Below are positions 32,204 through 56,120 of a DNA stretch of 64,000 bases, piece after piece. The translations under genes and the position numbers were made by a program. Position 1 is the stretch's first letter; each line of letters begins with the position of its first letter. The notes under the pieces were generated by a model. That model did not search any database. It saw only the letters and a list, made by a program, of their open reading frames with translations, and was not told where the DNA came from. This DNA is from Clostridia bacterium (GTDB lineage: Bacteria; Bacillota; Clostridia; Oscillospirales; CAG-272): positions 13,461 to 77,460 of the forward strand of contig JAGBSP010000033.1 in NCBI GenBank assembly GCA_017631855.1. Direction: 5' to 3'.

Positions 32204-32230
32204 AACCTTTTGATTACTTCTTACAAAAAC

Positions 32231-32270
32231 AAAAACCGCCGATGAGGGTTCATCCTCATCGGCGGTTTTT
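32231..32270. terminator. bidirectional terminator between ABC operon and ilvE
   Basis: AAAAACCGCCGATGAGG / CCTCATCGGCGGTTTTT, flanked by A/T runs. Confidence 0.8.
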
Positions 32271-32290
32271 AGCATATATACTAAGATATA

Positions 32291-33322
32291 TTATTTTACC
32301 TTGATCTCACGGATCCATCCTTCGGGCGCTTCAATTCTACCCATCTGGATACCGGTTAAAGTGTCGTACAGCTTCTTGGTAACGGGACCCATTTCGGTCA
32401 TTCCGCTCGGGAAGCAGATCTCCGTGCCGTGGTCAACCACTTTTCCTACGGGAGAAATAACTGCCGCGGTACCGCAAAGGCCGCATTCTGCGAAATCCTT
32501 GATCTCTTCGAGAAGCACTTCTCTCTCTTCCACTTCCATACCGAGATATTCCTTTGCTACGTAGCAGAGCGAACGTCTGGTGATCGAGGGGAGAATGGTT
32601 TCGGACTTCGGCGTTACGAGCTTTCCGTCCTTAGTGACAAAGAGGAAGTTTGCGCCACCGGTCTCTTCTACCTTGGTTCTGGTTGCGGAATCAAGATACA
32701 TATTTTCATCGTATCCCTGATGGTGCGCATCTACGATTGCGTGCAAGCTCATTGCATAGTTAAGTCCTGCCTTGATATGACCCGTTCCGCGGGGAGCGGC
32801 ACGGTCAAAATCACAAACGCGAAGCGTCAGAGGCTTTGCACCGCCCTTGAAGTAAGGACCTACAGGCGTAGCAAAAATACGGAACTGATATTCGGTTGCG
32901 GGCTTTACACCGATGACGGGGTTGCTTCCGAACATATAAGGACGGAGGTACATCGTAGCACCCGAGCCGTAGGGGGGAACGAAATCTGCGTTTGCCGCAA
33001 CAACTGCCTCAACTGCTTCGATAAACTTATCTTCGGGGTAGGCGGGCATTTCAAGTCTTCTTGCGCTATCAGCCAAACGCTGTGCGTTGAGGTCGGGACG
33101 GAAGGTAACGATGCGTCCGTCTTCCGTGCGGTATGCCTTCAGACCCTCAAAAACGGTCTGCGCATACTGAAATACGCCTGCGCACTCATTCAAGGTAACG
33201 TTGGCATCCTCAGTCAGAAATCCCTCTTCCCAAGCGCCATCCTTAAAGTTTGCAACGTATCTCTTATCGGTCTGAATATAGCCAAAGCCCAAATTCGACC
33301 AATCCAACTGCTTGTTACTCAT
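32291..33322 (-). CDS. ilvE: branched-chain amino acid aminotransferase
   Basis: Class IV aminotransferase of the long BCAT type: VFEGLKAY, YLRPYMFG, GHIKAGLNYA, EETGGANFLFV. The start is moved to the ATG at 33320-33322 behind AGGAG. Confidence 0.9.
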   Translation of the reverse strand: MSNKQLDWSNLGFGYIQTDKRYVANFKDGAWEEGFLTEDANVTLNECAGVFQYAQTVFEGLKAYRTEDGRIVTFRPDLNAQRLADSARRLEMPAYPEDKFIEAVEAVVAANADFVPPYGSGATMYLRPYMFGSNPVIGVKPATEYQFRIFATPVGPYFKGGAKPLTLRVCDFDRAAPRGTGHIKAGLNYAMSLHAIVDAHHQGYDENMYLDSATRTKVEETGGANFLFVTKDGKLVTPKSETILPSITRRSLCYVAKEYLGMEVEEREVLLEEIKDFAECGLCGTAAVISPVGKVVDHGTEICFPSGMTEMGPVTKKLYDTLTGIQMGRIEAPEGWIREIKVK

Positions 33323-33343
33323 TGTATATTCTCCTTGCAAAAA

Positions 33344-33883
33344 TTATTTCTTATAATTTTTTCCGAGGCTGAGTGCCTTCATATTCAAATCCTTGAGCGC
33401 CGCCTTCTTGGGGGGGACAAGCTTGTCTACCACCGTTTCAGCACCGTCAAAGGAAAGCTCGGGATGATTTTCGAGGAGATGTCCTACGATAATCATATTT
33501 GCAAGCGTTGCAATACCCTCTTCCTTTGCAATCTGCGTTGCGGGAATGTAAAATACCTCTACGTCGTCTCTCTCGACCTTCAGATCGATCAGAGAAGAAT
33601 CTACGTAGATCTGTCCGCCTGCAACAACCGAGTCAACGTACTTCTCAAGCGAAGGAAGGTTCATTGCGATCAGTACGTTCGGAGCCGTGATAATCGGCGA
33701 GCCAACGGGCGTGTCGGAGAGAATTACGTTACAGTTTGCGGTACCTCCGCGCATTTCGGGGCCGTAAGAAGGAAGCCAGGAAACCTGAAGCTCTTCCAAA
33801 AGTCCCTTATAAGCCAAGAACTTTCCCGAGAAAAGAATGCCCTGACCGCCAAAGCCTGCAATCAAAATTTCTGTGGTTTTCAT
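33344..33883 (-). CDS. 2-oxoacid:ferredoxin oxidoreductase, gamma subunit
   Basis: [21 protein letters not shown] ... [13 protein letters not shown] is typical of the gamma subunit. Its ATG overlaps the beta-subunit stop (ATGA at 33880-33883). Confidence 0.9.
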
Positions 33884-34638
33884 TCTGCTGCGTCCTCCTT
33901 CGCGGATCTGTCCTTGTATACGCCGATGGGATAGTAAGGAAGCATATCGCTCTCGATCCACTCCAGCGCCTGCTTAGGCGTCATACCCCAGTTGGTCGGG
34001 CAAGCCGAAACAACCTCAACCAGCGAGAAGCCCTTGCCCTCGATCTGATTTTGGAACGCCTTCTTAATTGCCTTCTTTGCGTTTCTTACGTTCTTTACGT
34101 TATTGACGGCAACACGCGTGATGTACTCAGGTCCCTCAAGGGTTGCAAGCATCTCGCTGACACGGATCGGCCAACCGCAGTGGTTGACGTCACGTCCGTA
34201 GGGAGAGGTCTGCGTTACCTGACCGGGAAGGCTCGTAGGAGCCATCTGTCCGCCCGTCATACCGTAAATCGCGTTATTGACGAAAATGACGGTAATATTC
34301 TCGTTTCTTGCAGCAGCATGAACCGTTTCTGCCATACCGATCGACGCAAGGTCTCCATCACCCTGATAGGTGAAAACGATATTGTCGGGACGGCAACGCT
34401 TGATACCCGTTGCAACAGCGGGAGCTCTTCCGTGTGCCGCTTCAATCATATCGCAAGCGAAATAATCATATGCCATAACTGCGCATCCAACAGGAGCTAC
34501 GCCGATGGCCTTTCCTTCGATGCCAAGCTCATCCATCGTCTCGGCAACCAAACGGTGAATAATACCGTGAGGGCATCCGGGACAGTAATGAAAGGGTGCA
34601 TCGGTCAATGCTTTCGGTTTTTCAAATACGATCGCCAT
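33880..34638 (-). CDS. 2-oxoacid:ferredoxin oxidoreductase, beta (TPP-binding) subunit
   Basis: [21 protein letters not shown] (TPP G-D-G motif) and [11 protein letters not shown]. Confidence 0.9.
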
Positions 34639-34640
34639 AA

Positions 34641-35702
34641 TTAGAACTCTCCTTTCTCTGCCTTCTGAATTGCAGAAAGTACCTCATCAGGGGTAGGAAT
34701 CATACCGCCTGCACGATTACACAGCGTCACAGGCTTTTTGCTTTCGGTTGCAAGCTTTACGTCCTCGATCATCTGACCCATGCTAAGCTCAACAGAGATA
34801 AATGCTTTTACCTTATCTGCAGCAGCTCTGAGTACCTCGGTCGGGAACGGCCACAGGGTGATCGGACGAATCAAACCAACCTTAATGCCTGCTTTTCTTG
34901 CTTCCGCAACTGCGTTTTTCGCAATTCTCGAGGTAATACCGAAGGCAACGACGCAGATCTCTGCATCCTCCATCATGTATTCCTCCCACATTGCTTCGTT
35001 CTTCTCGATTTCAGCATACTTTTCGAAACGCTCGAAATTCTTCTTTTCAAGCTCATCGGGCTTGAGGTAGAGCGAGTTAACAACGTTGTGCTTTCTCTTG
35101 CACTCGGTACCGGTCAGCGCCCAAGGCTTTTCATATACAGTAGGTTCAGCGTCCTCAAAGGTAATCGGCTCCATCATCTGACCGATGGTTCCGTCCGCCA
35201 GAATCATCGTGGTCATCGAATACTTGTCTGCAAGATCAAAGCCCTTGATCGTAAGGCTTGCCATCTCCTGCACCGAAGCGGGAGCAAGAACGATCATACG
35301 ATAGTCACCGTGACCGCCGCCCTTGGTTGCCTGGAAGTAATCCGACTGCGAGGGCTGAATACCGCCAAGTCCGGGTCCGCCGCGCTGTACGTTAACAACG
35401 AGTGCGGGAATATCCGATCCTGCGATGTAGCTAAGACCCTCTGCCTTCAGCGAAATTCCGGGGCTCGAAGAGGACGTCATAACGCGAAGTCCTGCTGCCG
35501 ATGCGCCGTATACCATATTAATCGAAGCGATCTCACTCTCTGCCTGAAGAAATACGCCGCCGATTTTCGGCATTTTCTTTGCCATATATGCGGCAATTTC
35601 CGTTTGAGGCGTGATGGGATATCCAAAATAGTGACGGCAGCCTGCTCTGATCGCAGCCTCCGCAATCGCCTCGTTACCCTTCATTAAAATTCTTTCTGCC
35701 AT
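34641..35702 (-). CDS. 2-oxoacid:ferredoxin oxidoreductase, alpha subunit
   Basis: [30 protein letters not shown] ... [19 protein letters not shown]. The start is moved to the ATG at 35700-35702 behind GGAG. Confidence 0.9.
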
Positions 35703-35743
35703 TATTTTCTCCATTCCGTTACCGTTTGGTAACTGCAAAAATC

Positions 35744-35950
35744 TTACTTTTCAACCGTGATAATGCAATCGGGACACATTGTTGCGCAGAAGGCACAACC
35801 GATACATTTTTCCTGATCCTTCATATATGCGGGAGAATATCCCTTCGGATTCAGCTTGTCCTGTGCGATTGCCAGACACTGCTTGGGGCACGCGTCAACA
35901 CACAAGCCGCATCCCTTACACATATCCGTGTTAAACGTTACTTTTGCCAT
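35744..35950 (-). CDS. 2-oxoacid:ferredoxin oxidoreductase, delta subunit (2x[4Fe-4S] ferredoxin)
   Basis: CKGCGLCVDAC and CIGCAFCATMC. The start is taken at the ATG at 35948-35950 behind GGAGGA. Confidence 0.85.
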   Translation of the reverse strand: MAKVTFNTDMCKGCGLCVDACPKQCLAIAQDKLNPKGYSPAYMKDQEKCIGCAFCATMCPDCIITVEK

Positions 35951-35992
35951 TTTTGTTCCTCCTATTTCCATGACTTTCCTTTGACGTTTCTG

Positions 35993-36685
35993 TCATTGGG
36001 GTAAATCAAAGTATTTCTTTTGAAGCGTCAAGGGTAAGATCGGAAGCTCCGAAAGTTCCCCTGATATGCTTTGTTCGACGGTATGAAGCCAGATCGGAAG
36101 TCCCGTTGCAAGGCTGACTGCCTCGGCATACGCAACCGAATCAAGCACGGTCTCGCGCGTTGTTTCAAAACCGATATTCGAATTGTTCACGATACACGTA
36201 AACTGAATTCCGCACGCCGTCTCGATTTCCTTCATAATTTCCAGCGTATCCTCTACGGTAGAGGTCAGCGGTCTGTGCCGATTGATGACGAACGCCATAC
36301 GGTAATCGCCCTCTGCCTTGATCGCATCCGCAAAACGACCAAGCGCATACGCGCCTCTGTCGTCTCCGCCAATATCGACTACGCCGAAGATCGAACGATC
36401 CTGAACGAGTCGGTAGCTCTCAGCGGGAATGGCGGGAAGATCGACGTTCGTATTTGCATAACGCGAAGAGATCAAATCGATTCCGTGCGCGGAAAGCTCT
36501 TTTTCGCTATCCTTGGTTCTGAAATACGGATTGACGATATCCAGATCGGCAATACAGACCTTCTTACCTTCCTCTGCAAGACGAACTGCGTAGTTCACGG
36601 CAATGTTGGTTTTGCCGCTACCGTAATGTCCTGCAAAGAGTGTTAATCTTTTATGTTCCATAGCGATTGTTTCAGCTTTTTTCAT
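35993..36685 (-). CDS. MinD/ParA-class (SIMIBI) P-loop NTPase of unknown role
   Basis: N-terminal Walker A is GHYGSGKTN and the switch-like segment is VVDIGGDDRG. The ATG at 36683-36685 overlaps the upstream TGA (TGATG). The ATG at 36661 (MEHKRL) is an alternative start. Confidence 0.8.
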   Translation of the reverse strand: MKKAETIAMEHKRLTLFAGHYGSGKTNIAVNYAVRLAEEGKKVCIADLDIVNPYFRTKDSEKELSAHGIDLISSRYANTNVDLPAIPAESYRLVQDRSIFGVVDIGGDDRGAYALGRFADAIKAEGDYRMAFVINRHRPLTSTVEDTLEIMKEIETACGIQFTCIVNNSNIGFETTRETVLDSVAYAEAVSLATGLPIWLHTVEQSISGELSELPILPLTLQKKYFDLPQ

Positions 36686-38958
36686 CAAAGCTTCTTTCTG
36701 ATGATCTTTCCACTCGTCGTCTTAGGCAGACTCTCGTGGAATTCTACGATTCTCGGGTACTTATAGGGTGCCGTACGAGACTTGACGTAGTTCTGAATTT
36801 CCTTCTTCAACTCGTCCGTACCCTCGGTACCCTGAACAAGCACGATGCTTGCCTTAACCACCTGGCCGCGAATCTCATCGGGTGCTGCGGAAACGCCGCA
36901 CTCGAGAACGTAAGGAAGCTCCATAATAACGTTTTCGATCTCAAACGGACCGATTCTGTAGCCCGACGACTTAATGACGTCGTCCGCACGTCCTACGTAC
37001 CAGAGGAAGCCGTCCTCATCGCACCAAGCAAGGTCGCCCGTGTGATAATAACCGTCGCGCCAAGTTTCTGCCGTGACCTCGGGATTACCCTCATACGCAT
37101 ACGCAAGACCGCAAGGAAGTCCCTTCGAGATATCGATACAGATCTCACCGCTCTCACCTGCCTCAACCTTTTCGCCCTCGGGGCTCAGCAAGCAGACCTT
37201 ATACAGCGGTACAGGCTTACCCATCGAACCGATCTTGTGGCTTCCGCCTGCAAGGTTACCGATGATCAGCGTACTCTCGGACTGACCGAAGCCTTCCATA
37301 ATCTGAAGTCCCGTATGCTTTTCAAACTGACGGAATACCTCGGGATTGAGTGCCTCGCCTGCCGTCGATGCGTGCTCGATGCTGGAAAGATCGAAGCGAG
37401 AAAGATCCTGCTTAATGAGCATTCTGTACATCGTAGGCGGTGCGCAGAAGGTAGTGATATTGTACTTTTTAAAGAGCGGAAGAATCTGCTCTGCGTCAAA
37501 GCGATCGAAGTCGTAAACAAAGGTTGCCGCCTCACACAGCCACTGACCGTAGAGCTTACCCCACATTGCCTTTGCCCAACCCGTGTCGGAGATGGTCAGA
37601 TGCAATCCGTCGGGGTTGACCTGATGCCAATACTTCGCGGTAATAAAGTGCCCGAGCGGATACTTGTGATTATGCGCCGCAATCTTCGGATAACCCGAGG
37701 TACCCGAGGTGAAGAACATCAGCATGGGATCATTGCCGCAAGGAGCATCCTCGGTGCGCTCGTAGTGACTGCTGTAGAGGCTGTATTCCTCATCAAAGTT
37801 ACGCCAACCGTCGCGATTTCCGCCAACGAGAATCTTGTGCGTAAGATTCGGGGATTTTTCTGCCGCCGCGTCGACCGCATTTGCCACGTCACCGTCTGCG
37901 GTACAAACGATCGCCTTAATGCCGCCTGCGTTGAATCTGTATTCAAAATCCTTTTCAAGCAACTGATTCGGTGCGGGAATTGCCACGGCACCGAGTTTAT
38001 TCAAAGCTAACATCGAGAACCAGAACTGATAGTGGCGCTTCAGTACCAGCATCACGCGGTCGCCTCTTTGAATACCGATCGATTTAAAGTAGTTAGCAAC
38101 TCTTGCGGATTCCTTTTTCATATCCTGGAAAGTAAATTTCCGTTCTGTTCCGTCACCGCTAATATGAAGCATCGCCAGCTTATTCGGCTTACGTCTGCCG
38201 AGCTCGTCCACTACGTCAAACGCAAAGTTGAAACGATCCTCGTTTTGGAACGCAATTTCCGTCAGAATACCGTCTTTTTCAGTAGGAAGAATAAAGTCCT
38301 GATAAATTCTCTGCTGATTGTCCTCGTCGCGACGCTTGGTGACCGTCGAGGAAGCAGCTACCTGCTCACCCTCTCTTGCCGCCTGGTTGCGAAGCACGAT
38401 CGCATAGAAGGAGCAATCCGCTCCTCCCACGGCGATCATTCCGTGAGGCATACCCGAATCGTAGTAGATACAATCTCCGGGATTGAGGGTTTCGGTATGA
38501 TCACCGATCTGAATTTTCATCTGACCGCTGATAACGATATCACATTCCTGACCCTCGTGCGTAACCATCTCGATCTTCTCGTTTTCCGCTCCATTGTGGT
38601 ACTTCATCTCCATATAAAGCGGAAGTGCGATACGGTTGCGGAATCCGGAAGCGAGGTTATATCCCACCATATGATGGGCTTCCTCAATTCTCTGTCCTTC
38701 CCCTCTTCTGGTCAGGGCGTACGAGCGAAGCTTCGGGCTTTTACCCTCAAGAATATCGCTCATATCCACGCCGAAGTTAAGCGCACAGTGATATAAGAAC
38801 GCAATACTAAGATTTTTGGTACCGTTCTCACACGCTTCGTACTCGCTCTCGTCCATTCCCGTCCGTTCCGCCATTTCGGCAATCGACAGGCCCGTAATCA
38901 GACGCAACTCGCGAACACGGTCGGCGATTTGTTTTAATTTATGCTCCATAATGTCCAT
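36685..38958 (-). CDS. HTH_XRE + cupin N-terminal module fused to AMP-forming (ACSM/Macs-like) acyl-CoA synthetase
   Basis: HTH is GLSIAEMAERTGMDESEYEACENG and the cupin is HEGQECDIVISGQMKIQIGD ... GMPHGM. The adenylate-forming core has FFTSGTSGYPK, GYYHTGDLA, GRADDVIKSSGYRIGPFEIE and the terminal PKTTSGKIIR. Confidence 0.9.
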   Translation of the reverse strand: MDIMEHKLKQIADRVRELRLITGLSIAEMAERTGMDESEYEACENGTKNLSIAFLYHCALNFGVDMSDILEGKSPKLRSYALTRRGEGQRIEEAHHMVGYNLASGFRNRIALPLYMEMKYHNGAENEKIEMVTHEGQECDIVISGQMKIQIGDHTETLNPGDCIYYDSGMPHGMIAVGGADCSFYAIVLRNQAAREGEQVAASSTVTKRRDEDNQQRIYQDFILPTEKDGILTEIAFQNEDRFNFAFDVVDELGRRKPNKLAMLHISGDGTERKFTFQDMKKESARVANYFKSIGIQRGDRVMLVLKRHYQFWFSMLALNKLGAVAIPAPNQLLEKDFEYRFNAGGIKAIVCTADGDVANAVDAAAEKSPNLTHKILVGGNRDGWRNFDEEYSLYSSHYERTEDAPCGNDPMLMFFTSGTSGYPKIAAHNHKYPLGHFITAKYWHQVNPDGLHLTISDTGWAKAMWGKLYGQWLCEAATFVYDFDRFDAEQILPLFKKYNITTFCAPPTMYRMLIKQDLSRFDLSSIEHASTAGEALNPEVFRQFEKHTGLQIMEGFGQSESTLIIGNLAGGSHKIGSMGKPVPLYKVCLLSPEGEKVEAGESGEICIDISKGLPCGLAYAYEGNPEVTAETWRDGYYHTGDLAWCDEDGFLWYVGRADDVIKSSGYRIGPFEIENVIMELPYVLECGVSAAPDEIRGQVVKASIVLVQGTEGTDELKKEIQNYVKSRTAPYKYPRIVEFHESLPKTTSGKIIRKKL

Positions 38959-38988
38959 AGGTTGTTTATACTACCTCTCTTTTACGAA

Positions 38989-41256
38989 TTAAAGCTTATT
39001 ACGAATAATCTTACCGCTGATCGTCTTGGGCAATTCCTTACGGAATTCGACAATTCTCGGGTATTTGTAAGGAGCCGTGTGAAGCTTGACGTAATTCTGA
39101 ATATCCTTTTTGAGCTCATCCGTAGCCTCAGTACCGGGGACAAGAACGATACAAGCCTTAACGACCTGACCTCTGACCTCGTCGGGGGCTGCACATACTC
39201 CGCACTCAAGAACGTACGGAAGTTCCATAATCGTAGATTCGATCTCAAACGGACCGATACGGTAGCCCGAGGACTTGATGACGTCATCCGCACGTCCGAC
39301 GTACCAATAATATCCGTCCTCATCGCGCCACGCAAGGTCGCCCGTGTGATACAAGCCATCGTGCCAAACGCTTGCCGTTGCCTCCTCGTTCAGATAGTAT
39401 CCAAGGAAGAGTCCGCAGCTTGCTTTCGGCTCGGTGTGGATCACGATCTCTCCGTTCACACCGTCCGGCACGGGATTACCGTCGGGATCCGCAAGGTCGA
39501 TACCGTATCCGGGAATGGGCTTACCCATCGCACCGGGCTTGAGCTGAGTTCCGCGAAGATTGCCGATACCAAGCGTCATCTCGGTCTGACCGAAGCCCTC
39601 TGCGATACGAAGTCCGGTGGATTTTTCAAACTGGTAGAATACCTCGGGGTTGAGTGCCTCGCCCGCGGTCGTTGCGTGTCGAATCGAGGAAAGGTCAAAG
39701 CGACTGATATCCTGCTTGATGAGCATTCTGTACATCGTAGGCGGTGCACAGAATGTAGTAATGTTATATTGCTTAAAGAGCGGAAGAATCTTCTCCGCAT
39801 CGAAACGATCGAAATCGTATACGAATACCGCGCACTCACACAGCCACTGTCCGTAGAGCTTGCCCCACAGAGCCTTACCCCAACCGGTTTCCGAGATGGT
39901 AAAATGGAGTCCGTCCTTCTCACACAGATGCCAATATTTTGCCGTAACGAAATGTCCAAGCGCATATTTATACGAATGCATTGCCATCTTCGGATAACCC
40001 GTCGTTCCAGAAGTAAAGAGCATCAGCATCGGATCGTTGCCGCAAGGAGCATCCTCCGTACGGAGATAACGGCGGCTGAAGAGCGAATATTCCGCATCAA
40101 AATTGCGCCATCCGTCTCTCGATCCTCCCACAAGAACCTTCGTCAGTGAGAGATCAGATGCCTTCTCTGCCAACTCGATCTGATGCGCGGTATCTCCATC
40201 CGCAGTACATACGACCGCGCTAACGCCTGCCGCTTTAAAACGATAAGTAAAGTCGTGCTCGAGAAGCTGATTGGTTGCAGGAATCGCGATAGCACCGATC
40301 TTATGCAGACCGAGAATTGCGAACCAGAACTGATAATGACGCTTAAGTACCAAAAGGACTCGGTCGCCTCTCTGAATACCGAGCGACTTGAAGTAGTTTG
40401 CGCTCTGCGAGGAAGCATCCTTGATATCCTTAAAGGTAAATTTGCGTGCGGTCATATCGTTTGATACGTGAACCATTGCAATTTTGTTCGGCTCTTTGCG
40501 CGCGATCTCGTCTACCGTATCAAACGCAAAGTTGTATTGATCTTCGTTGGTGTAACCGACGTCGAGGAGAACTCCGTTTTCATCCTCCTTCGTCTGGATA
40601 AATTTCTCACACAGAAGCGGCGCGTTCTCTGCCGTCTGCAGACCCGAACCAATGTACATCGGCTGGTCGGTAGCATCACTCGCCATAACAACAGAGAGGA
40701 AGACGCAATCCTGATTGTCGATTGCGATCATTCCGTGAGGTGTCGAAGACTTGAAGAAAATGCTATCCCCCTCGTGCAAAATCTCCTCATGCTCTCCGAT
40801 GCGGAAGCGCAACGATCCCTTGATTACCATATCAAATTCCTGACCTGAGTGCGTTACCGTACTGATGGGCATCTTTTGGAGCTCGTCCGAATACTGATAG
40901 GTAACCCAATAGGGTGTCGCAAGCTTTTTACGGAACTGCGATGCAATTGCCTGAATCGTGATACCGTCCTCTGCCGCAGTAGTGAGACCCTCACCCTTTC
41001 GCGTCACGGTATATCCCGAGAGCTTTGCGCTATGCCCCTCAAGAAGATCGGTAATCTCAATTCCATATGCCTTAGCACACTTATGTATAAAGGTAAAGGG
41101 CAGATCAATGCTACCAGTTTCATACGAGCAATAAAGCTCTTCGGAAACCTCAGTCAACTCTGCCATCTGCGCAGATGTATAGCCCATAATCTGACGCATC
41201 TCGCGTATACGCAACGCGACCTTTTCAAGTTGATTGACATCTGATTGATTTGTCAT
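38989..41256 (-). CDS. HTH_XRE + cupin + AMP-forming acyl-CoA synthetase (tandem paralogue)
   Basis: Same architecture and motifs: LFTSGTTGYPK, GLYHTGDLA, GRADDVIKSSGYRIGPFEIE, PKTISGKIIR. The track start at 41292 is TTG inside the T-box terminator. The ATG at 41254-41256 (MTNQSD) behind AGGAG is preferred. Confidence 0.9.
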   Translation of the reverse strand: MTNQSDVNQLEKVALRIREMRQIMGYTSAQMAELTEVSEELYCSYETGSIDLPFTFIHKCAKAYGIEITDLLEGHSAKLSGYTVTRKGEGLTTAAEDGITIQAIASQFRKKLATPYWVTYQYSDELQKMPISTVTHSGQEFDMVIKGSLRFRIGEHEEILHEGDSIFFKSSTPHGMIAIDNQDCVFLSVVMASDATDQPMYIGSGLQTAENAPLLCEKFIQTKEDENGVLLDVGYTNEDQYNFAFDTVDEIARKEPNKIAMVHVSNDMTARKFTFKDIKDASSQSANYFKSLGIQRGDRVLLVLKRHYQFWFAILGLHKIGAIAIPATNQLLEHDFTYRFKAAGVSAVVCTADGDTAHQIELAEKASDLSLTKVLVGGSRDGWRNFDAEYSLFSRRYLRTEDAPCGNDPMLMLFTSGTTGYPKMAMHSYKYALGHFVTAKYWHLCEKDGLHFTISETGWGKALWGKLYGQWLCECAVFVYDFDRFDAEKILPLFKQYNITTFCAPPTMYRMLIKQDISRFDLSSIRHATTAGEALNPEVFYQFEKSTGLRIAEGFGQTEMTLGIGNLRGTQLKPGAMGKPIPGYGIDLADPDGNPVPDGVNGEIVIHTEPKASCGLFLGYYLNEEATASVWHDGLYHTGDLAWRDEDGYYWYVGRADDVIKSSGYRIGPFEIESTIMELPYVLECGVCAAPDEVRGQVVKACIVLVPGTEATDELKKDIQNYVKLHTAPYKYPRIVEFRKELPKTISGKIIRNKL

Positions 41257-41292
41257 AATTACTAAAACTCCTTTCAGGAAATCATAAAACAA

Positions 41293-41548
41293 AAAAACGT
41301 CTCAAGAAGAAAATCTTGAGACGAGCATAAACTACTCGCGGTACCACTCAAATTACGGAAAACCGCCACTTAGAACCCTTATAAGTTCTTACCCTTAACG
41401 CGGGAAACGTGAAACCCTAACCATTGCTCGGATTCCCGACTCGGAAGTGATGGGTAGCTCGACTTTTTGCAATCGGCTCGCACCAAACGCCGACTCTCTG
41501 AATGCTCATTATGCCCTACCGTCTTCGTCACAGTTTTTTCTTTATATC
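41293..41548 (-). promoter_or_regulatory. T-box riboswitch leader (inferred specifier AUC, Ile)
   Basis: Minus-strand elements: AGAGAG (41494-41499), GGTGCGAG, the conserved T-box TGAGTGGTACCGCGAG (core 41337-41350), and terminator CGTCTCAAGA/TCTTGAGACG (41298-41323) plus T7. The specifier AUC-A at 41449-41451 is inferred from alignment with the sister leader. Confidence 0.85.
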
Positions 41549-41555
41549 ATACTAT

Positions 41556-41584
41556 ATTTTATCATTTCTTCGCAAAAAAGTCAA
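41556..41584 (-). promoter_or_regulatory. SigA-type promoter of the minus-strand T-box operon
   Basis: On the minus strand: TTGACT (41579-41584), a 17-nt spacer, then TAAAAT (41556-41561). Confidence 0.55.
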
Positions 41585-41678
41585 ACATTTTCTTTCACAA
41601 AAATGCACAAACTTTCAAAATTATTAAATTGTTTTTTGTATATTATCATCAAATATCACATTTTTTTGTATTTTGCAC

Positions 41679-41707
41679 TTGACAAAACGAAAATTTAATG
41701 GTTAAAT
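41679..41707 (+). promoter_or_regulatory. SigA-type promoter of the plus-strand T-box operon
   Basis: TTGACA (41679-41684), a 17-nt spacer, then TTAAAT (41702-41707). Confidence 0.5.
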
Positions 41708-41714
41708 ATATATA

Positions 41715-41990
41715 AAAATAAGAAAGACACTGACGTAAATTTTACCCCGTATTCGAATGCAACACAGAGGCGGCGTTTGGTGCGAGCCGATGCAAACGTT
41801 TTGGGTGTACTCATTCCCGAGTCGGTCTTGTCAACGCGAAAGCAAGTAATGAGACACGGTAGCCCCCGTTACAGGGCAAGGCCTTTCTTTGGGCTTTTGA
41901 GTGATTTCCCTTCTTGGGGGGTAATCAGGGTGGTACCACGAATATGATTCGTCCCTGAAGCCGTACGAGCGGCTCGGGGATTTTTTTATT
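41715..41990 (+). promoter_or_regulatory. T-box riboswitch leader (inferred specifier CUC, Leu)
   Basis: CAGAGG ... TTTGGTGCGAGCC in Stem I, a T-box core GGGTGGTACCACG (41928-41940), and a terminator at 41952-41980 plus T7 (41981-41987). The CUC-A at 41810-41812 aligns with the AUC-A of the divergent leader. AAAGGAG and the ATG at 42010 follow. Confidence 0.85.
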
Positions 41991-42009
41991 TGAAAGGAGT
42001 TATCTACAA

Positions 42010-43419
42010 ATGATGAGACAAATTGTAATCAGCGACGCAACGATGAAACAGACCTCTGAAGATCTGCGCCTTACGTTTAAGGAAAAAATTGAGCTTTGCA
42101 AGCTTTTGGACAAAATCGGTGTCGATTTGATCGAGCTTGACGGGATCAAATCGCCTCGAATTGATTCGCTTTTAATCAAATCAATCGTAGCCGCTGTTCA
42201 TCACAGCCGCGTCGCCGTTCCCGTAGAGCTCTTGAATGACGAAAATATCGAACGAACCTGGGCAGCTCTGAAAAACGCAAAAAAACCTCGTCTTCAGGTT
42301 TGTGCTCCCACAAGCGCCGTGTAAATAGAATATCTGTTCCACCAAAAGCCGGAGGCAATGATCGAATCGATCCGTCAAACAGTCGCGGCCTGCCGTGAGC
42401 TGTGCGATGACGTAGAGTTCGTTGCGGGCGACGCCACACGTAGCGAGAGCGACTTTCTCGGAAAGGCTGTAGAGGCTGCCGTTTCCGCAGGCGCAACCAC
42501 CGTAACGCTTTGCGATACGGCAGGAACGATGCTCCCCTCCGAGTTTGCTGAATTTATCCGCCGTCAGTATAGCGCGATCCCCTGTCTTTCCGAGGTCACT
42601 CTCGGTGTCTGCTGCGCCAACACCATCGCAATGGCGGACGCTTGCGCTATGATGGCAATTGCGGAGGGTGCAGGACAAATTCGTGCGGCAGCTTACACAA
42701 TCTCTGAGGCATCTCTTTCCACCGTTACTCGAATTCTTACGGCAAAGGCAGACTCGCTGAATGCGTGCATTGGCGTGAAAGCAACGCAGCTGAGCAGAAT
42801 CATCTCGCAAATCGACTGGCTCTGCCACACCGGAAAGAGTCAACCCGCTACCACCGAATCCGAGCAAGACGATGACGTGTTCCTCACGGCACACGACACG
42901 GAGGAAGCGGTTTCAGCAGCCACGGTAAGACTCGGATACGATCTCTCCGACGAGGATGCACAGAAGGTATATGCGGCATTCCGTCAGATCGCAGACAAGA
43001 AAGAAAAGGTCACCTTCAAGGAGCTTGATGCCATCGTGGCATCCTCTGCGATGCAGGTACCCTCTACTTACAAGCTCGATACCTACGTGATCACCTCCGG
43101 AAACACGATCTCGGCTACCGCTCATATTAAACTCGTCAAAAACGGAACTCCCGTGGAGGGTGTTTACATTGGTGACGGCTCAATCGACGCGGCTTTCCAG
43201 GCGATCGAGAAAATCACCGGTTGTCACTACGAGCTCGACGACTTCCAGCTTCAGGCAGTCACCGAGGGACGTGAGGCAATGGGACAAACCGTCGTCAAGC
43301 TTCGCGCGGGCAACAAGGTTTATTCGGGCAGAGGTATCTCTACCGACATCGTTGGCGCAGGAATTCAAGCCTATCTGAGCGCCTTAAATAAAATTGTTTA
43401 CGAGGAGGAAATCGAATGA
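42010..43419 (+). pseudogene. LeuA/HMGL-like protein with degenerate catalytic motifs, interrupted by one in-frame TAA (42322-42324)
   Basis: ORFs 42010-42324 and 42358-43419 are in the same frame. Homology continues across the stop: ...CAPTSAV*IEYLFHQKPEAM, compare LeuA ...TSPIHxEYKL. DTTLRDGEQ is replaced by SDATMKQTSE and H-x-H by CCANT. The C-terminal LeuA-dimer/regulatory domain looks intact (GSIDAAFQAIEKI ... TDIVGAGIQAYLSALNKI). Confidence 0.7.
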
Positions 43420-45926
43420 AACTTTCCTTTTCCACAAGAGGATGGCCAAATCTTTCTTTTGAGGAAATGCTTGAGGTCGCCCTGGATATGGGATTTTCTG
43501 GCGTTGAGGTATACAATCTCGCAAAATTTGATCCGTTGATGGAAAAAGGCGGTCCCTTCCATAAGTACAACACCGCCGCCACAGTTCGTCAGCTCAGAGA
43601 GAGAGGACTCTCGATTCCTTGCTTTGACACCTCTCTTGATATCTCGTGCGATAACACCGCGATATCGACGATAAAAAATCTGCTTGAGATCGCGCACAAT
43701 GCAAGAGTTCCCTACGTCGTGGTATGCGCATTACGCGACGACGAGGAGGCGGTATATTCCGCACTCACCGAGCTTTTGCCAATTGCCGCCGAGAAAAAAG
43801 TAAGTATCCTGATCAAAACCAGCGGAATTTACGCAGACACCCTCCGCCTTCGCGCGATGCTCGACAGCTTTGCCAGCGACCATCTCGCAGCACTGTGGGA
43901 TGTTCATCATCCGTATAGAGATCACGGAGAATCTGGAGATCAAACCATCAAAAATCTCGGTGCTTACGTTGCGCACGTCCATATGCGCGACTCGGATGAT
44001 GACGGCGCATATCAGCTGATCGGTGAAGGAACGATGCCCATCGAAGACGTAATGCGCGCACTTTCTTCGGTCAACTACGACGCGTTTATCTCCCTCGAAT
44101 GGAAGCCAGAATGGCTCGATGATCTTCAAGATCCCGAAATTATTTTCCCCCATTTTGTCAACTATATGTCGCATTTTCATTCCACGAGGGATATGAAAAA
44201 GAGTCTTTACTTCAACCACGACGGCACGGGACAGTACGTTTGGAAAAAGGACGAGCTCATCGACCTGACCTTCTCCGAGGTACTCGACAGAGTAGCAGAC
44301 GAGTTTCCCGATCAGTACTGTTTCAAGTACACGACGCTCGATTATACCCGCACCTACTCGCAGTTCCGCGAGGACGTAGACCGTTTTGCCAGAGCGCTTG
44401 TTTCTCTCGGTGTCAAGGCGGGCTCTAAGGTTGCTGTCTGGGCAACCAATCTTCCCGCGTGGTATATCACCTTCTGGGCAACCACCAAGATCGGTGCCGT
44501 TCTCGTTACCGTCAACACGGCATATAAGATCCACGAGGCGGAATATCTGCTCCGTCAATCCGACACGCATACGCTCGTGATGATCGAGAGCTGTCTTGAC
44601 TCGAATTACAAGGAAATCATCAACACCCTTTGCCCCGAACTGAAGAACACCGTCCCCGGAGAGCCTCTCCACGCAAAAAAGCTTCCCTTCCTTCGCAACG
44701 TCATCACCGTTGGATTTAAACAGGAAGGATCGCTCACCTTCGAGGAAGCAATGACACGTTATAAACTCGTCAGCCGCGAGCAGGTTGCCAGAATGGCGGC
44801 AGCCGTCAAGCCGAGCGACGTTTGCAATATGCAGTACACCTCGGGTACGACAGGCTTTCCAAAGGGCGTAATGCTCACGCACTACAACGTTGTCAACAAC
44901 GGAAAATGTATTGGTGACCGTATGGGACTTTCCACAGCGGACCGAATGATGATCCATGTTCCAATGTTCCACTGCTTCGGTATGACACTCTCGATGACCT
45001 CGTCGATGACGCACGGTGCTACAATGTGTCCAATGCCCTATTTCTCCGCAAAATCCTCTCTGGCGTGTATCAATCAAGAGAAGATTACCTGCTTTAACGG
45101 CGTACCGACGATGTTTATCGCAATGTTCAATCACCCGAACTACCGCAATACTGACTTCTCGCATATGAGAACGGGAATTATGGCAGGATCAGGCTGTCCC
45201 CCCGAATTGATGAAGCGCGCCGCACGTCCCGACGAGATGAATATGACGGGAATCGTCAGCGTTTACGGACAAACCGAATGCGCGCCCGGTAATACGATGA
45301 GCTCGTGGACCGATCCGCTGGACGTCCGAACCGAAACGGTAGGATCCGCATTCCCACACGTCATGTGTAAAATTATTGATCCTGAAACAGGAACCGAAGT
45401 TGGTCCCGGTGTCAACGGCGAATTCTGTGCCAAGGGATATAACACAATGAAGGGCTACTATAAAATGCCAGATGCCACCAAGGAAACGATTGATGAGGAC
45501 GGATGGCTCCACTCGGGCGACCTCGCTTGCCGTGATGAGAACGGAAATTATAAAATTACCGGACGTCTTAAGGATATGATCATCCGCGGCGGTGAAAATA
45601 TTTACCCCAAGGAAATCGAGGAATTTATTTATACCCACCCGATGACAAAAGACGTTCAGGTCATCGGCGTTCCCGATAAAAAATACGGCGAGGAGATTAT
45701 GGCTTGCATTATCCTCAAGGAACCGGGAAGCGTCACGGTGGAGGAGATGAGTGCCTATATTAAATCCAGCATGGCGCGCCATAAAGTTCCGAAGTATATC
45801 GAATTTGTGGACAGCTTCCCGATGAACGCGGCAGGCAAAGTGCTCAAATATAAGATGCGACAGGACGCCGCAGAGCGCCTCGGACTTGTTGGCGACGGTG
45901 CCGATACAGCAGGTCCCCAAAAATAA
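43416..45926 (+). CDS. xylose-isomerase-like TIM-barrel domain fused to AMP-forming acyl-CoA ligase (FadD-like)
   Basis: The N-terminal ~260 aa resemble sugar-phosphate isomerase/epimerase (AP_endonuc_2-like): LSFSTRGWP ... GFSGVEVY ... HVHMRD ... ISLEW. The C-terminal ligase has MQYTSGTTGFPKGV, GWLHSGDLA, GRLKDMIIRGGENIYPKEIE and NAAGKVLK. Its start overlaps the upstream stop (ATGA). Confidence 0.88.
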   Translation: MKLSFSTRGWPNLSFEEMLEVALDMGFSGVEVYNLAKFDPLMEKGGPFHKYNTAATVRQLRERGLSIPCFDTSLDISCDNTAISTIKNLLEIAHNARVPYVVVCALRDDEEAVYSALTELLPIAAEKKVSILIKTSGIYADTLRLRAMLDSFASDHLAALWDVHHPYRDHGESGDQTIKNLGAYVAHVHMRDSDDDGAYQLIGEGTMPIEDVMRALSSVNYDAFISLEWKPEWLDDLQDPEIIFPHFVNYMSHFHSTRDMKKSLYFNHDGTGQYVWKKDELIDLTFSEVLDRVADEFPDQYCFKYTTLDYTRTYSQFREDVDRFARALVSLGVKAGSKVAVWATNLPAWYITFWATTKIGAVLVTVNTAYKIHEAEYLLRQSDTHTLVMIESCLDSNYKEIINTLCPELKNTVPGEPLHAKKLPFLRNVITVGFKQEGSLTFEEAMTRYKLVSREQVARMAAAVKPSDVCNMQYTSGTTGFPKGVMLTHYNVVNNGKCIGDRMGLSTADRMMIHVPMFHCFGMTLSMTSSMTHGATMCPMPYFSAKSSLACINQEKITCFNGVPTMFIAMFNHPNYRNTDFSHMRTGIMAGSGCPPELMKRAARPDEMNMTGIVSVYGQTECAPGNTMSSWTDPLDVRTETVGSAFPHVMCKIIDPETGTEVGPGVNGEFCAKGYNTMKGYYKMPDATKETIDEDGWLHSGDLACRDENGNYKITGRLKDMIIRGGENIYPKEIEEFIYTHPMTKDVQVIGVPDKKYGEEIMACIILKEPGSVTVEEMSAYIKSSMARHKVPKYIEFVDSFPMNAAGKVLKYKMRQDAAERLGLVGDGADTAGPQK

Positions 45927-47358: not shown

Positions 47359-48264
47359 TCAGTCCTCAAGGGCTTCATCCTCTCGGCGAAGGAAAGCAAG
47401 TCCGTATCCGGCAAGCCAAGGTCCGCAGTGACAACCGCTGACGGGAGACACGATCATCGGCTCATGGTTAGGTTCAATTCCGTATTGCTTTTCGATCTCC
47501 ATCTGCTGCTCGACGAGCGACGTACCCGTGTACATACGCCAGAGCACGTAGTCCTCGGGAGAACGGTCTCCGATCATTTCCTTCACGATCATGCATTCCT
47601 GATGCAATGCCTTTTTGAGGGTTCTGACGCTCTGCAAGGAACAGATTTCCCCCTCGTGCGTAAAATGAAGTACGGGGCAAACGCTGAGCATTTTGCCCAT
47701 CAACGCCTTTCCTCCCTTGAGTCTTCCGTTGTAAATAAGATAATCCAATTTTCCCACAACGCCGATAAATTCCTGACGCTTCATCATCCAGGCAATCTCC
47801 TTAAGAATGGTTTCGGTAGGAATATCCTTCTGCACCATTTCCGCCGCCTTGATGGCAAGAAGTCCCTCGCCAAAGCAAGCGATTTTGGAGTCAACGACCG
47901 TAATTTTAATACGGTCGGAGAATTCCTCGGCGATCAAACGAATGAGATTGTAGGTTCCGCCAAGGTACGAGCTCAGAGCAATCACGATGACCTCGTCGTA
48001 TCCGTCGGCACACGCCTTTTCGAACTGGGACATAATCTCTTCTCTCGTTGGCATCGAGGTGTAGGGCAAATGATTCTGAGGATCTTCGAGAACCTCCAGC
48101 TGACGGTAAAATTCTACGGGATCAAGGTCCAATCCCTCGCGATATTCCTTTCCCTGAAAATGAACGTGAACGCGGATAAAGTCAATATCGTATGTTCTGT
48201 AACGTTCGGGAGCATACTCAATGCAACCCGTGGAGGTACATATAATTTTTCTCTTGTTTGCCAT
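47359..48264 (-). CDS. DegV-family fatty-acid-binding protein (FakB-like)
   Basis: KIICTSTGCIEY ..., SSYLGGTYN, and the C-terminal VSPVSGCHCGPW, typical of DegV. Confidence 0.88.
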   Translation of the reverse strand: MANKRKIICTSTGCIEYAPERYRTYDIDFIRVHVHFQGKEYREGLDLDPVEFYRQLEVLEDPQNHLPYTSMPTREEIMSQFEKACADGYDEVIVIALSSYLGGTYNLIRLIAEEFSDRIKITVVDSKIACFGEGLLAIKAAEMVQKDIPTETILKEIAWMMKRQEFIGVVGKLDYLIYNGRLKGGKALMGKMLSVCPVLHFTHEGEICSLQSVRTLKKALHQECMIVKEMIGDRSPEDYVLWRMYTGTSLVEQQMEIEKQYGIEPNHEPMIVSPVSGCHCGPWLAGYGLAFLRREDEALED

Positions 48265-48289
48265 TGTCTTTCTCCTTTATTCTCTTCGT

Positions 48290-49273
48290 TTATCTATGAT
48301 CTCTGCCTTCAAACAGAGTTTGATTTTTTGCCATATTCAAAAGCATCGACGAGGTGTTTTTGATCGAGTCTGCGTTTGCCGTTCCTCTTGCTTTGAGGAT
48401 CGGCTTTCCAACGCCAAGAATGATTGCGCCACCCAGCGCGCTGAAGTCATACAGCCCCATCAGATACGCCACCAGCTTCATCATCTCGGGATTGCCCGTT
48501 TTCTTTGCGTATTTGACGATGTCGGTAATGATGCGGCGGGCAATTCCCTCCGAGTTCTTAAAGACCTGATTTCCCGCAAAGCCGTCGCAAACGAGGACGT
48601 CGCAATCGCCTGAAAGTGCGCGATTTCCCTCGATATTTCCGATAAAATTGAGCTCCGTCTCCAGCTTCAAGCGCGCGTGCGTTTCCTTGACGAGCTTATT
48701 TCCCTTCGTTGCCTCGGCGCCATTGGAAAGCAGACCGATGCGGGGAGATTCGATGCCGTAAAATTCCTTCATAAATTCCGATCCCATATGCGCGAAGGCA
48801 ACCAGCTGATCGGCAGTACAGTCAATATTTGCGCCCGTGTCGCAAAGACAGGTAAATCCGCCCTGCTCTGCAGGAAGAATTGCCGCAAGCGCGGGACGCT
48901 TGAGCTCCTTTGCCGGAACGTAGCGAAGCGATCCTGCCAAAAGCGCCCCCGTACTACCCGCATTAATCAAACCGACGAGATCCTCTTGCTCTCCCAGTGC
49001 GACGAGTGCCTTGACGAGCGAAGAATCGTTTTTACGGAAGATCGCCTCCATCGGATTGTCGTAATTGGTGATCACCTCCGATGCGTGAACGATTTCAATG
49101 CGTGCACGGTCACAATCGATTTCACTTAGCTTTTTTTCAAGGATTCCGGCGTCACCGAACAGCACCACCGAAAGATCCTCGTGCTCACGGAGCGCCTGTA
49201 CCGCTCCCTCCACCAACAGCTCGGGGCCGTGGTCGCTTCCCATGACATCAATGGCAATTTTATAGGTTTTCAT
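48290..49273 (-). CDS. plsX: phosphate acyltransferase PlsX
   Basis: IAIDVMGSDHGP, NAGSTGALLA and GNIEGNR motifs. Confidence 0.92.
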   Translation of the reverse strand: MKTYKIAIDVMGSDHGPELLVEGAVQALREHEDLSVVLFGDAGILEKKLSEIDCDRARIEIVHASEVITNYDNPMEAIFRKNDSSLVKALVALGEQEDLVGLINAGSTGALLAGSLRYVPAKELKRPALAAILPAEQGGFTCLCDTGANIDCTADQLVAFAHMGSEFMKEFYGIESPRIGLLSNGAEATKGNKLVKETHARLKLETELNFIGNIEGNRALSGDCDVLVCDGFAGNQVFKNSEGIARRIITDIVKYAKKTGNPEMMKLVAYLMGLYDFSALGGAIILGVGKPILKARGTANADSIKNTSSMLLNMAKNQTLFEGRDHR

Positions 49274-49284
49274 CTCAATTCTCC

Positions 49285-50946: not shown

Positions 50947-50976
50947 AATCTCTCCGTCATTCAAGATCAATATATT

Positions 50977-53068: not shown

Positions 53069-54367
53069 ATGATTTGGTCAAAAGAAGAAACATTACCCAG
53101 AGAAGAACTTGAAAAATTACAGTTGGAGCGCTTGCAGGAAACCGTCCACCGCGTTTACGCCAAGGTTGCTCCCTACCGCGCAAAAATGGATGCGGCAGGT
53201 GTCAAGCCTGAGGATATTCAATCTCTTGCGGATCTGAAAAAGCTTCCCTTCGTTACGAAGCAGGATATGCGTGATACTTATCCCTTTGGTCTGTTTGCCG
53301 TCGATCGCGACGAGCTCGTAAGAATTCACGCCTCGAGCGGAACGACGGGCAAGCCGACCGTTGTCGGTTATACGAAAAAGGATCTGGAAATCTGGACCGA
53401 ATGCGTTTCGCGTATCGCTTGTATGGGCGGCGCGTCCTCGCACGACGTAGCACAGATCTGCTTCGGTTACGGAATGTTTACGGGTGCGCTCGGTCTGCAC
53501 TACGGCTTGGAAAATATCGGAGCCGTCATCGTGCCCTCTTCGACAGGAAATTCCGAAAAGCAAATTATGTACATGCAGGATTTTGAAACCTCGCTGCTCG
53601 TTGCCACCCCCTCGTACGCACTGCGTCTTGCCGAGGTTGCAAGAGAGATGGGCGTGGATCCCATCAAGGATCTGAAGGTCAAGATCGCCCTCGTCGGAAG
53701 CGAAATGCTCACCGACGCGATGCGTGAGGAAATGCATAAATATTGGGGCAAGGATCTGCTCATCACCTCGAACTACGGTATGAGTGAGCTGATGGGTCCC
53801 GGCGTTTCGGGTGAATGTACCGAGCTTTGCGGTATGCACATCAACGAGGACTACTTCCTCCCCGAAATCATCGATCCCGCCACGGGAGAGGTTCTTCCCG
53901 CAGGAGAAAAGGGCGAACTCGTCATCACCTGCATCAAAAAGGAAGGAATTCCGCTCATCCGTTACCGCACCAAGGATATTACCAGACTCTTCTACGAGCC
54001 CTGTAAGTGCGGAAGAACCTTCTGCCGTATGGAAAATCTTTCGGGCAGAAGCGACGACATGCTCAAGATCCGCGGTGTCAACGTCTTCCCGAGTCAGATC
54101 GAAGAGGTCATTCTCGGTGTTGAAGAACTCGGACCTCACTACGAGATCATTCTTGAGCGCGACGGCTACCTCGACAAGATGACCATCAAGGTCGAGCTTG
54201 CGCAAAGCACCGACTCTTTCTCGGTATTGGAGCGAATTTCCACTACCGTAAGGAATAAATTAAGGGTGATTCTGGGACTTGATGCTAAGGTTCTTCTGGT
54301 ATCGCCCAACACCCTTCAGCGCTTTGAGGGCAAAGCAAAACGAGTAAAGGATTTAAGAAACAAATAA
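53069..54367 (+). CDS. paaK: phenylacetate-CoA ligase family (PaaK-like) adenylate-forming enzyme
   Basis: [22 protein letters not shown], and RYRTKDIT ... CKCGRTFCRM ... [20 protein letters not shown]. Confidence 0.9.
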   Translation: MIWSKEETLPREELEKLQLERLQETVHRVYAKVAPYRAKMDAAGVKPEDIQSLADLKKLPFVTKQDMRDTYPFGLFAVDRDELVRIHASSGTTGKPTVVGYTKKDLEIWTECVSRIACMGGASSHDVAQICFGYGMFTGALGLHYGLENIGAVIVPSSTGNSEKQIMYMQDFETSLLVATPSYALRLAEVAREMGVDPIKDLKVKIALVGSEMLTDAMREEMHKYWGKDLLITSNYGMSELMGPGVSGECTELCGMHINEDYFLPEIIDPATGEVLPAGEKGELVITCIKKEGIPLIRYRTKDITRLFYEPCKCGRTFCRMENLSGRSDDMLKIRGVNVFPSQIEEVILGVEELGPHYEIILERDGYLDKMTIKVELAQSTDSFSVLERISTTVRNKLRVILGLDAKVLLVSPNTLQRFEGKAKRVKDLRNK

Positions 54368-54379
54368 GGAGTAAATACC

Positions 54380-56119: not shown

Positions 56120-56120
56120 A

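Follow-up and report, generated by a model that had tools for sequence, protein, structure and literature searches.

What is achieved by placing two acyl-CoA ligases, a 2-oxoacid:ferredoxin oxidoreductase (OFOR) and an aminotransferase behind a switch that reads isoleucine? The question is raised by a minus-strand operon in a 64,000 nucleotide stretch of Clostridia bacterium DNA (GTDB lineage Oscillospirales, CAG-272; assembly GCA_017631855.1, contig JAGBSP010000033.1, positions 13,461 to 77,460), and this whole stretch is called the window below. An earlier reading of the letters alone (the original prediction) took the operon to be a T-box-controlled route from branched short-chain acids to the branched-chain amino acids (BCAAs). 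Our follow-up, which is computational throughout, supports that reading through the T-box specifiers of the window and its relatives, the similarity of the ligases to Macs and MbcS, the VorB and IlvE family cut-offs and synteny. We judge, with a probability of roughly 0.7, that the locus is a starvation-induced salvage operon that converts branched short-chain fatty acids of the gut or rumen into BCAAs.

The isoleucine T-box leader and its operon

T-boxes turn genes on when the cognate tRNA is uncharged, which stabilizes the antiterminator. Is the leader of this operon such an element, and which tRNA would it read? A default gathering-threshold Rfam scan of the window lists only a T-box on the plus strand (41721-41959) and a glycine riboswitch, and leaves the minus-strand leader unlisted. 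In a permissive Rfam scan of 41200-42100 the leader is found at 41314-41540 with 92.6 bits (E 8.6e-21) and full coverage of the RF00230 model (positions 1-219), a score that misses the curated gathering threshold of 93 bits by 0.4 bits. In the alignment to the model the specifier (41451-41449) is AUC with an A after it, and Stem I also has the UGA...GAG, AGAGAG and GGUGCGAG motifs. The T-box core AAUUUGAGUGGUACCGCG with its UGGU bulge lies at 41353-41336, and a 10-bp terminator stem at 41323-41298 is followed by a run of U; this stem and the 3' strand of the antiterminator have CGUCUCA in common, so the two structures are mutually exclusive. When 50 orthologous Ile leaders were compared by RNAalifold, 27 of the 43 consensus pairs had compensatory changes, the Stem I pairs covary, and the ATC specifier and the core AAUUUGAGUGGUACCGCG were invariant. 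The specifier is thus kept constant against a varying background, and the isoleucine type given to the leader in the original prediction is borne out.

The leader would act by tRNA-dependent antitermination, as its sequence features predict. Transcription would begin at a constitutive-looking promoter (TTGACT-17-TAAAAT, which matches at 10 of 12 positions, is the top match of the region and has a counterpart in the same position in related loci) and enter the T-box leader; uncharged tRNA-Ile (anticodon GAU) would pair with the AUC specifier and, through its free 3' end, with the UGGU of the bulge; and this pairing would favor the antiterminator over the terminator at 41323-41298 and let RNA polymerase into the genes beyond. 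No tRNA genes were found in the window.

The ORF listing and family scans of the window give eight co-directional genes from 41256 to 32291 on the minus strand: lig1, lig2, a P-loop NTPase gene, vorD, vorA, vorB and vorG (the OFOR delta, alpha, beta and gamma subunits) and ilvE. They are tightly packed, with a TGATG overlap between lig2 and the P-loop gene, gaps of 21 nt from there to vorD, about 41 nt from vorD to vorA and 2 nt from vorA to vorB, an ATGA overlap between vorB and vorG, and at most 21 nt between vorG and ilvE. The unit ends at an intrinsic terminator (18-bp stem, 32271-32230, with T-runs on both strands) that it shares with convergent ABC-transporter genes. What the original prediction said of this layout, namely eight genes behind one promoter and T-box, tight spacing with these overlaps, and a bidirectional terminator at 32231-32270, agrees with the ORF, family, promoter and Rfam scans.

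Three T-box specificities in related loci

Is this arrangement peculiar to the window? One genome per GTDB species was scanned with the ligase, which gave at least 590 confirmed stretches, and the best 80 of these (65-87% identical, with flanks of 10 kb on either side) were taken as the comparison set. All 80 come from metagenome-assembled genomes, most of them of ruminant origin, of Oscillospiraceae, Acutalibacteraceae, Ruminococcus, Faecousia or the like; the ligase family to which lig1 and lig2 belong, which carries a helix-turn-helix (HTH) plus cupin module (below), is abundant in gut and rumen assemblies and common among Oscillospirales genomes. In a tblastn comparison of the window's proteins with the 80 loci, every locus of sufficient length has lig1, the P-loop gene and vorD-A-B-G, and usually lig2 as well (12 loci lack it); an aminating enzyme usually lies 3' of the vor genes. 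The gene order is conserved across the 80 loci, which supports the original prediction; no linked copy of ilvB, ilvC or ilvD was found in any of them.

The aminating enzyme is the part that varies. In most loci the last gene encodes a class IV aminotransferase that is 35-42% identical to the window's IlvE, and in the nearest relatives whose sequence extends to it the gene encodes a 343 aa ELFV-family Leu/Val dehydrogenase (L002, L003, L007-L011, L013 and L026; for example L002:13585-14616 and L007:18214-19245). Four loci have IlvE 5' of the P-loop gene. In L018-L021 an omega-amidase-like carbon-nitrogen hydrolase gene (L018:15538-16323) lies between vorG and ilvE, and its product could pull glutamine-dependent transamination toward amino acid synthesis. 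Since IlvE and the Leu/Val dehydrogenase replace one another non-orthologously, the interconversion of branched 2-oxoacid and amino acid is the one step that is retained.

T-boxes in the 80 loci and the window were collected by a regular-expression search followed by an nhmmer profile made from the leaders, and hmmalign was used to read the specifier column. Among the 168 T-boxes found, the specifier codon matches the next gene without exception. The leader of lig1 has ATC in 78 of 78 scorable cases (one further leader is partial); the T-box of lig2, where there is one, is a Val T-box in all 43 cases (GTA in 35 and GTC in 8); and the T-box ahead of a leuA-like gene and a third ligase gene, lig3, is a Leu T-box in 42 of 42 (CTC in 23 and CTG in 19). 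Downstream of four further GTA leaders the sequence is truncated. Known BCAA T-boxes use AUC for Ile, GUA or GUC for Val and CUC or CUG for Leu, and the usage here is the same.

The Val T-box sits in a lig1-lig2 spacer of 350-490 nt (for example at about 12270-12620 in L007), and most of these T-boxes have a near-consensus promoter of their own (34 of 43 score at least 11/12). In most relatives a separate Val T-box with a promoter of its own thus stands 5' of a gene run made up of lig2, the P-loop gene, vorDABG and the gene for the aminating enzyme. No Val T-box precedes lig2 in the window, where the lig1-lig2 spacer is only 30 nt, or in the relatives nearest to it (L001-L004, L008, L010, L012, L013, L016 and L026); in all of these genomes the whole gene set, eight genes in the window, is behind the Ile switch. 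In the 12 loci without lig2 all genes are likewise on the Ile T-box, a state reached by another route. The original prediction had a single Ile T-box over the whole gene set, and this is correct for the window but is one layout among several and not a general rule.

The Leu T-box, the leuA-like gene and lig3, none of which figured in the original prediction, are in the window divergent from the operon. The relatives, too, invariably keep this unit linked to the operon, be it divergent, in tandem upstream or in tandem downstream, and such constant linkage across three arrangements speaks for a functional tie and against mere chance. The gene lig3 is always 3' of the leuA-like gene behind the Leu T-box. 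The leuA-like gene is intact in all 49 relatives, which have Gln where the window has an in-frame TAA codon; this TAA stems from a nonsense mutation of CAA or from an error in sequencing. Genes for DegV, PlsX and FakA (47359-50970, minus strand; exogenous fatty acid uptake and phospholipid synthesis) lie about 1.4 kb downstream of lig3. The specifiers and gene orders of the relatives are those of a putative three-part regulon: T(Ile)-lig1; T(Val)-lig2, P-loop gene, vorDABG and aminating enzyme; and T(Leu)-leuA-like gene and lig3.

Ligases, oxidoreductase and aminotransferase

Do the enzymes fit the amino acids that the T-boxes name? The catalytic domains of lig1 and lig2 match PDB entry 3etc (Macs of M. 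acetivorans) over the whole domain with 604 and 612 bits, and ACSM2A with about 335 bits. The best NCBIfam model for both is MbcS, with scores of 428.8 and 426.5 bits against an equivalog (NF047394) cut-off of 850. Macs adenylates C3-C8 acids including propionate, but its preferred substrate for the complete two-step reaction is 2-methylbutyrate (PMC10455477), as the original prediction had said of an archaeal Macs; MbcS is selective for 2-methylbutyrate and isobutyrate, is poor with isovalerate and butyrate, and is inactive with acetate (PMC10026030). From this selectivity of MbcS, the acids branched at C2 map onto the two Macs/MbcS-type paralogues, which are the ones with Ile and Val T-boxes, and its poor use of isovalerate, which is branched at C3, fits a Leu branch served by a different ligase family. 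The acyl-pocket residue Trp259 of Macs (PMC10455477) is conserved in lig1 and lig2 in the alignment with 3etc, whose chain numbering is the Macs numbering plus 23.

What distinguishes the two paralogues? In a comparison of 77 lig1 and 47 lig2 sequences, only five positions are at least 90% conserved within each group and different between them, of which four are in the N-terminal module and one in the catalytic domain. The latter, Macs position 255, is in the pocket segment, which reads GWGKALW in lig1 (Gly in 77/77, as in Macs) and GWAKAMW in lig2 (Ala in 47/47, Ala462), and the direction of this difference is consistent with a substrate of lig2 that is one carbon shorter. W237, W254, K256, C298 and G351 are reportedly further pocket positions of Macs (Meng et al. 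2010), and all are conserved in lig1 and lig2; the alternate acyl pocket of Macs has a Gly in place of the Trp of Acs. From the T-box specifiers and the Gly/Ala difference we infer that lig1 is a 2-methylbutyrate-CoA ligase and lig2 an isobutyrate-CoA ligase. The third ligase has only generic ANL-family matches and belongs to a subfamily other than that of lig1 and lig2; it may activate isovalerate to the CoA ester, which is the weakest of the three assignments.

The OFOR is encoded by a complete set of subunits on adjacent genes (Pfam TPP_enzyme_C, POR and Fer4, the last with two motifs). Its alpha subunit passes the VorB subfamily model NF005507 (552.6 bits, cut-off 399), and the closest PDB sequence to it is 1yd7, the alpha subunit of the P. 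furiosus 2-keto acid:ferredoxin oxidoreductase; the beta, gamma and delta subunits reach no equivalog cut-off. The specificity of OFORs is not predictable from their sequences. From the Ile and Val T-boxes and the IlvE or Leu/Val dehydrogenase neighbors, this one probably acts on branched 2-oxoacids and acyl-CoAs. IlvE passes two equivalog cut-offs (PRK13357, 459 against 307 bits; TIGR01123, 380.8 against 250 bits). The original prediction had called the four subunits a VOR-type OFOR and the last gene a branched-chain aminotransferase, and both names hold; its two ACSM/Macs-like AMP-forming ligases are upheld by the Macs matches, and what it overlooked is the module N-terminal to them (below).

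The P-loop protein has weak CbiA, ParA, ArsA and Mrp matches, and its AlphaFold model (pLDDT 72.8) matches SIMIBI folds with TM-scores of 0.5-0.6 (SRP54/FtsY, ATPase-type HypB and Mrp-like proteins). Its gene is present in every one of the 80 loci that is long enough, and our guess is that it aids maturation or assembly of the OFOR. A role as an Mrp/NBP35-type Fe-S carrier was considered and is unsupported, as the protein has no CXXC motif.

Each of the two ligases begins with a module of about 230 aa made of an XRE-type HTH and a Cupin_2 domain (Pfam). Cupin_2 scores 47.7 and 48.6 against a threshold of 27.2, and HTH_19 scores 37.1 in lig2 (threshold 30.2) and 26.6, which is below it, in lig1. 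The four discriminating residues of the module (above) are H58, E96, I99 and Y116 in lig1 and Y, A, M and L in lig2. The cupin residues His136, Glu140 and His174 (lig1 numbering) are invariant, and their spacing resembles that of a 2-His-1-carboxylate metal site such as the metal triad of HppE. The module has no sequence match in the PDB; Foldseek matches its AlphaFold model (pLDDT 62) to the HTH+cupin regulator 1y9q (V. cholerae HTH_3) and to the Fe(II) enzymes HppE and HEPD. XRE-HTH plus cupin proteins (regulators such as the PuuR type and 1y9q, and enzymes such as HppE) resemble it in two-domain fold and, with the HTH score of lig1 below threshold, in Pfam domains, and what sets the window's module apart from them is its fusion to an acyl-CoA ligase.

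Could the ligases also be regulators? We regard it as possible, though rather doubtful, that HTH+cupin is a paralogue-specific sensor and that the ligases are bifunctional enzyme-regulators in the manner of BirA, which would add a second layer over the T-box in a cross-feeding regulon. The ligand may be the cognate branched acid, its acyl-adenylate or the end-product amino acid, possibly at a His-Glu-His metal site, and the module may act either as a DNA-binding autoregulator or through feedback inhibition of the first step. Inspection of the promoter regions by eye found no operator common to all loci. A TTTGCACAAAA-like motif (TTTGTGCA in the window, at about 41590-41610) lies between the divergent promoters of the close clade only (L001-L013 and L027) and is not conserved in the tandem arrangements; it may be a regulator binding site.

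Table 1. Positions of the operon, its control elements and the divergent Leu unit in the window.
Feature	Position	Strand	Description
Promoter	41556..41584	-	sigma-70-type TTGACT-17-TAAAAT with TG extension, directly 5' of the T-box
Ile T-box leader	41288..41548	-	RF00230; Stem I, specifier AUC, T-box core, terminator
lig1	38989..41256	-	755 aa; XRE-HTH + Cupin_2 module and putative Macs/MbcS-type AMP-forming acyl-CoA ligase
lig2	36685..38958	-	757 aa; paralogue of lig1 (60% identity), same domain fusion
N-terminal modules of lig1 and lig2	40552-41256 (lig1), 38254-38958 (lig2)	-	HTH + Cupin_2
SIMIBI-class P-loop NTPase	35993..36685	-	222-230 aa; annotated by NCBI as hypothetical protein
OFOR delta (vorD)	35744..35971	-	75 aa; two [4Fe-4S] ferredoxin motifs
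OFOR alpha (vorA), VorB type	34641..35702	-	NF005507 VorB match
OFOR beta (vorB)	33880..34638	-	thiamine pyrophosphate-binding; TPP_enzyme_C
OFOR gamma (vorG)	33344..33883	-	Pfam POR
IlvE	32291..33322	-	class IV branched-chain amino acid aminotransferase (type II)
Operon terminator	32230..32271	both	intrinsic, 18-bp stem, T-runs either side
Leu T-box	41721..41959	+	specifier CUC, 101.9 bits, divergent from the operon
leuA-like gene	42010..43419	+	HMGL-like and LeuA_dimer domains; in-frame TAA at 42322-42324
lig3	43416..45926	+	836 aa; xylose-isomerase-like TIM barrel and ANL-family acyl-CoA ligase

Elsewhere in the window, a plus-strand cluster at 53069-60513 encodes a PaaK-like aryl-acetate-CoA ligase, IorA, IorB, a second PaaK-like ligase, an amidohydrolase and a class I/II aminotransferase, and in its ligase-OFOR-aminotransferase layout it mirrors the BCAA operon. 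Such a cluster could serve to make aromatic amino acids from phenylacetate or indoleacetate through reductive carboxylation; no T-box was found at it with the leader profile. The glycine riboswitch aptamer (RF00504, 57.7 bits) is at 62156-62251 on the minus strand. Positions 1-16000 are likely a mobile or defense island, with a phage-type integrase (13661-14836), two Schlafen-like helicases, a HipA-like protein, a DUF4238 protein and large ORFs that have no family match.

The proposed route, its alternatives and its meaning

In the route that we favor, lig1 would convert 2-methylbutyrate, and lig2 isobutyrate, to the CoA thioester, with ATP cleaved to AMP and pyrophosphate; the VorB-type OFOR, with reduced ferredoxin and CO2, would reductively carboxylate these acyl-CoAs to 3-methyl-2-oxopentanoate and 2-oxoisovalerate; and IlvE would transaminate the two 2-oxoacids to Ile and Val. 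Activation by AMP-forming ligases is effectively irreversible, and VOR is anabolic in methanogens. Allison and co-workers reportedly showed by labeling that rumen bacteria carboxylate branched acids to Ile, Val and Leu. Reductive carboxylation of branched acids has also been invoked for Methanobrevibacter ruminantium (PMC2812497).

Several observations weigh against this route or limit it. In most relatives the VOR and the aminating enzyme are behind a Val T-box, so that Ile starvation alone would induce only lig1, and in the window, conversely, Val starvation is predicted to be unable to induce lig2 or the operon. The MbcS scores of lig1 and lig2 are so far below the cut-off that specificity cannot be transferred by family membership, and lig3 is tied to isovalerate solely through its Leu T-box. 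For the OFOR the match is to a VorB subfamily model only, and the nearest structures are generic 2-keto acid and 2-oxoglutarate OFORs, so its specificity is taken from context. The operon itself encodes no source of reduced ferredoxin.

Might the same enzymes serve another end? If lig1 or both ligases activated propionate, the OFOR would be a 2-oxobutyrate synthase, and IlvBN, IlvC and IlvD would follow, with IlvE last. The Ile specifier fits this scheme equally well, and Clostridium sporogenes and methanogens are reported to form Ile by reductively carboxylating propionate; Macs moreover adenylates propionate. We nevertheless consider this scheme unlikely: Macs carries the full reaction through preferentially with 2-methylbutyrate (PMC10455477), MbcS is inactive on acetate (PMC10026030), ilvB, ilvC and ilvD are unlinked in all 80 loci, and it offers no rationale for the Val T-boxes on the lig2 orthologues. 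Slightly less likely still is a supply of primers for branched-chain fatty acids, in which the ligases would do what MbcS does in S. aureus when precursors are scarce and VOR with IlvE would be an alternative, oxidative source of the same primers. MbcS is indeed the best family match of the ligases (PMC10026030), and fakA, plsX and degV are a few kb away; but an oxidative flux through IlvE and VOR under Ile starvation would use up the scarce amino acid, co-transcription with an aminating enzyme is kept even where one such enzyme has replaced another non-orthologously, and three amino-acid-specific T-boxes correspond one-to-one with three ligases.

Fermentation of BCAAs to branched short-chain fatty acids, by IlvE, VOR and a CoA-ester step, is in our view very improbable, even though the same enzyme classes run oxidatively in amino acid fermenters (for example via porA or vor in gut bacteria) and leucine dehydrogenase is catabolic in Bacillus. 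AMP-forming ligases conserve no energy and do not serve to release acids, genes for ptb/buk, ADP-forming ACS or a CoA-transferase are absent from the operon, and a T-box, by its logic, induces its genes upon shortage of the amino acid. Starvation-induced salvage of branched acids into BCAAs is therefore the reading that we retain.

How does such a system compare with those already described? Reductive carboxylation is classical chemistry, and T-boxes are well known. The BCAA T-box leaders of Firmicutes (B. subtilis ilv-leu, ileS, valS and leuS) are of the same RF00230 class and have the same terminator/antiterminator logic, but here they precede acyl-CoA ligases and a ferredoxin-dependent oxidoreductase and not aminoacyl-tRNA synthetase, transporter or ilv/leu genes. 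The catalytic domain of Macs (3etc) aligns end to end with those of the window ligases and shares Trp259 and the neighboring pocket residues with them, and MbcS is their best NCBIfam model; Macs and MbcS are without the N-terminal HTH+cupin module, and the setting proposed here is one of amino acids rather than lipids. The VOR of methanogens and Thermococcales has the same alpha, beta, gamma and delta composition, whereas the window's OFOR comes from a bacterium and shares its operon with dedicated ligases, a P-loop NTPase and an aminating enzyme. The predicted chemistry and the habitat are those of reductive carboxylation in the rumen (isobutyrate, 2-methylbutyrate and isovalerate to Val, Ile and Leu); the Allison/Bryant-era work described that physiology without genes or regulation, and what is added here is a candidate gene set and its regulatory logic. 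The original prediction had held the gene set and its T-box control to be undescribed, and the full-text literature, key subscription papers aside, contains no account that we could find of T-box control of acyl-CoA ligases and an OFOR, of a three-specifier regulon or of an HTH-cupin-ligase fusion, though these may be mentioned in the T-box survey of Vitreschak 2008 or the Macs paper of Shah 2009.

That rumen and gut anaerobes need branched short-chain fatty acids, and that label from these flows into Ile, Val and Leu, has been known since the 1960s. To our knowledge the bacterial genes for the carboxylation route were never pinned down, and the loci described here offer a concrete and widely conserved candidate set with one ligase per amino acid, in which three T-box specificities serve as a regulatory read-out that assigns genes to amino acids without experiment. 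Two conserved, uncharacterized parts, the HTH-cupin-ligase fusion and the SIMIBI NTPase tied to the OFOR, are flagged as well. If the fusion is a sensor, the pathway would be confined to conditions in which the amino acid is scarce and its precursor acid at hand, and together with the three T-boxes this would make a cross-feeding regulon and make many uncultured Oscillospirales dependent on the branched acids of their neighbors. If the salvage reading is true, metabolic models of Oscillospirales, which might otherwise be called BCAA auxotrophs or have their VOR read as catabolic, would change; the benefit of branched-chain volatile fatty acid supplements to fiber-degrading communities would be explained; and the T-box regulon would be extended to ferredoxin-dependent, CO2-fixing chemistry.

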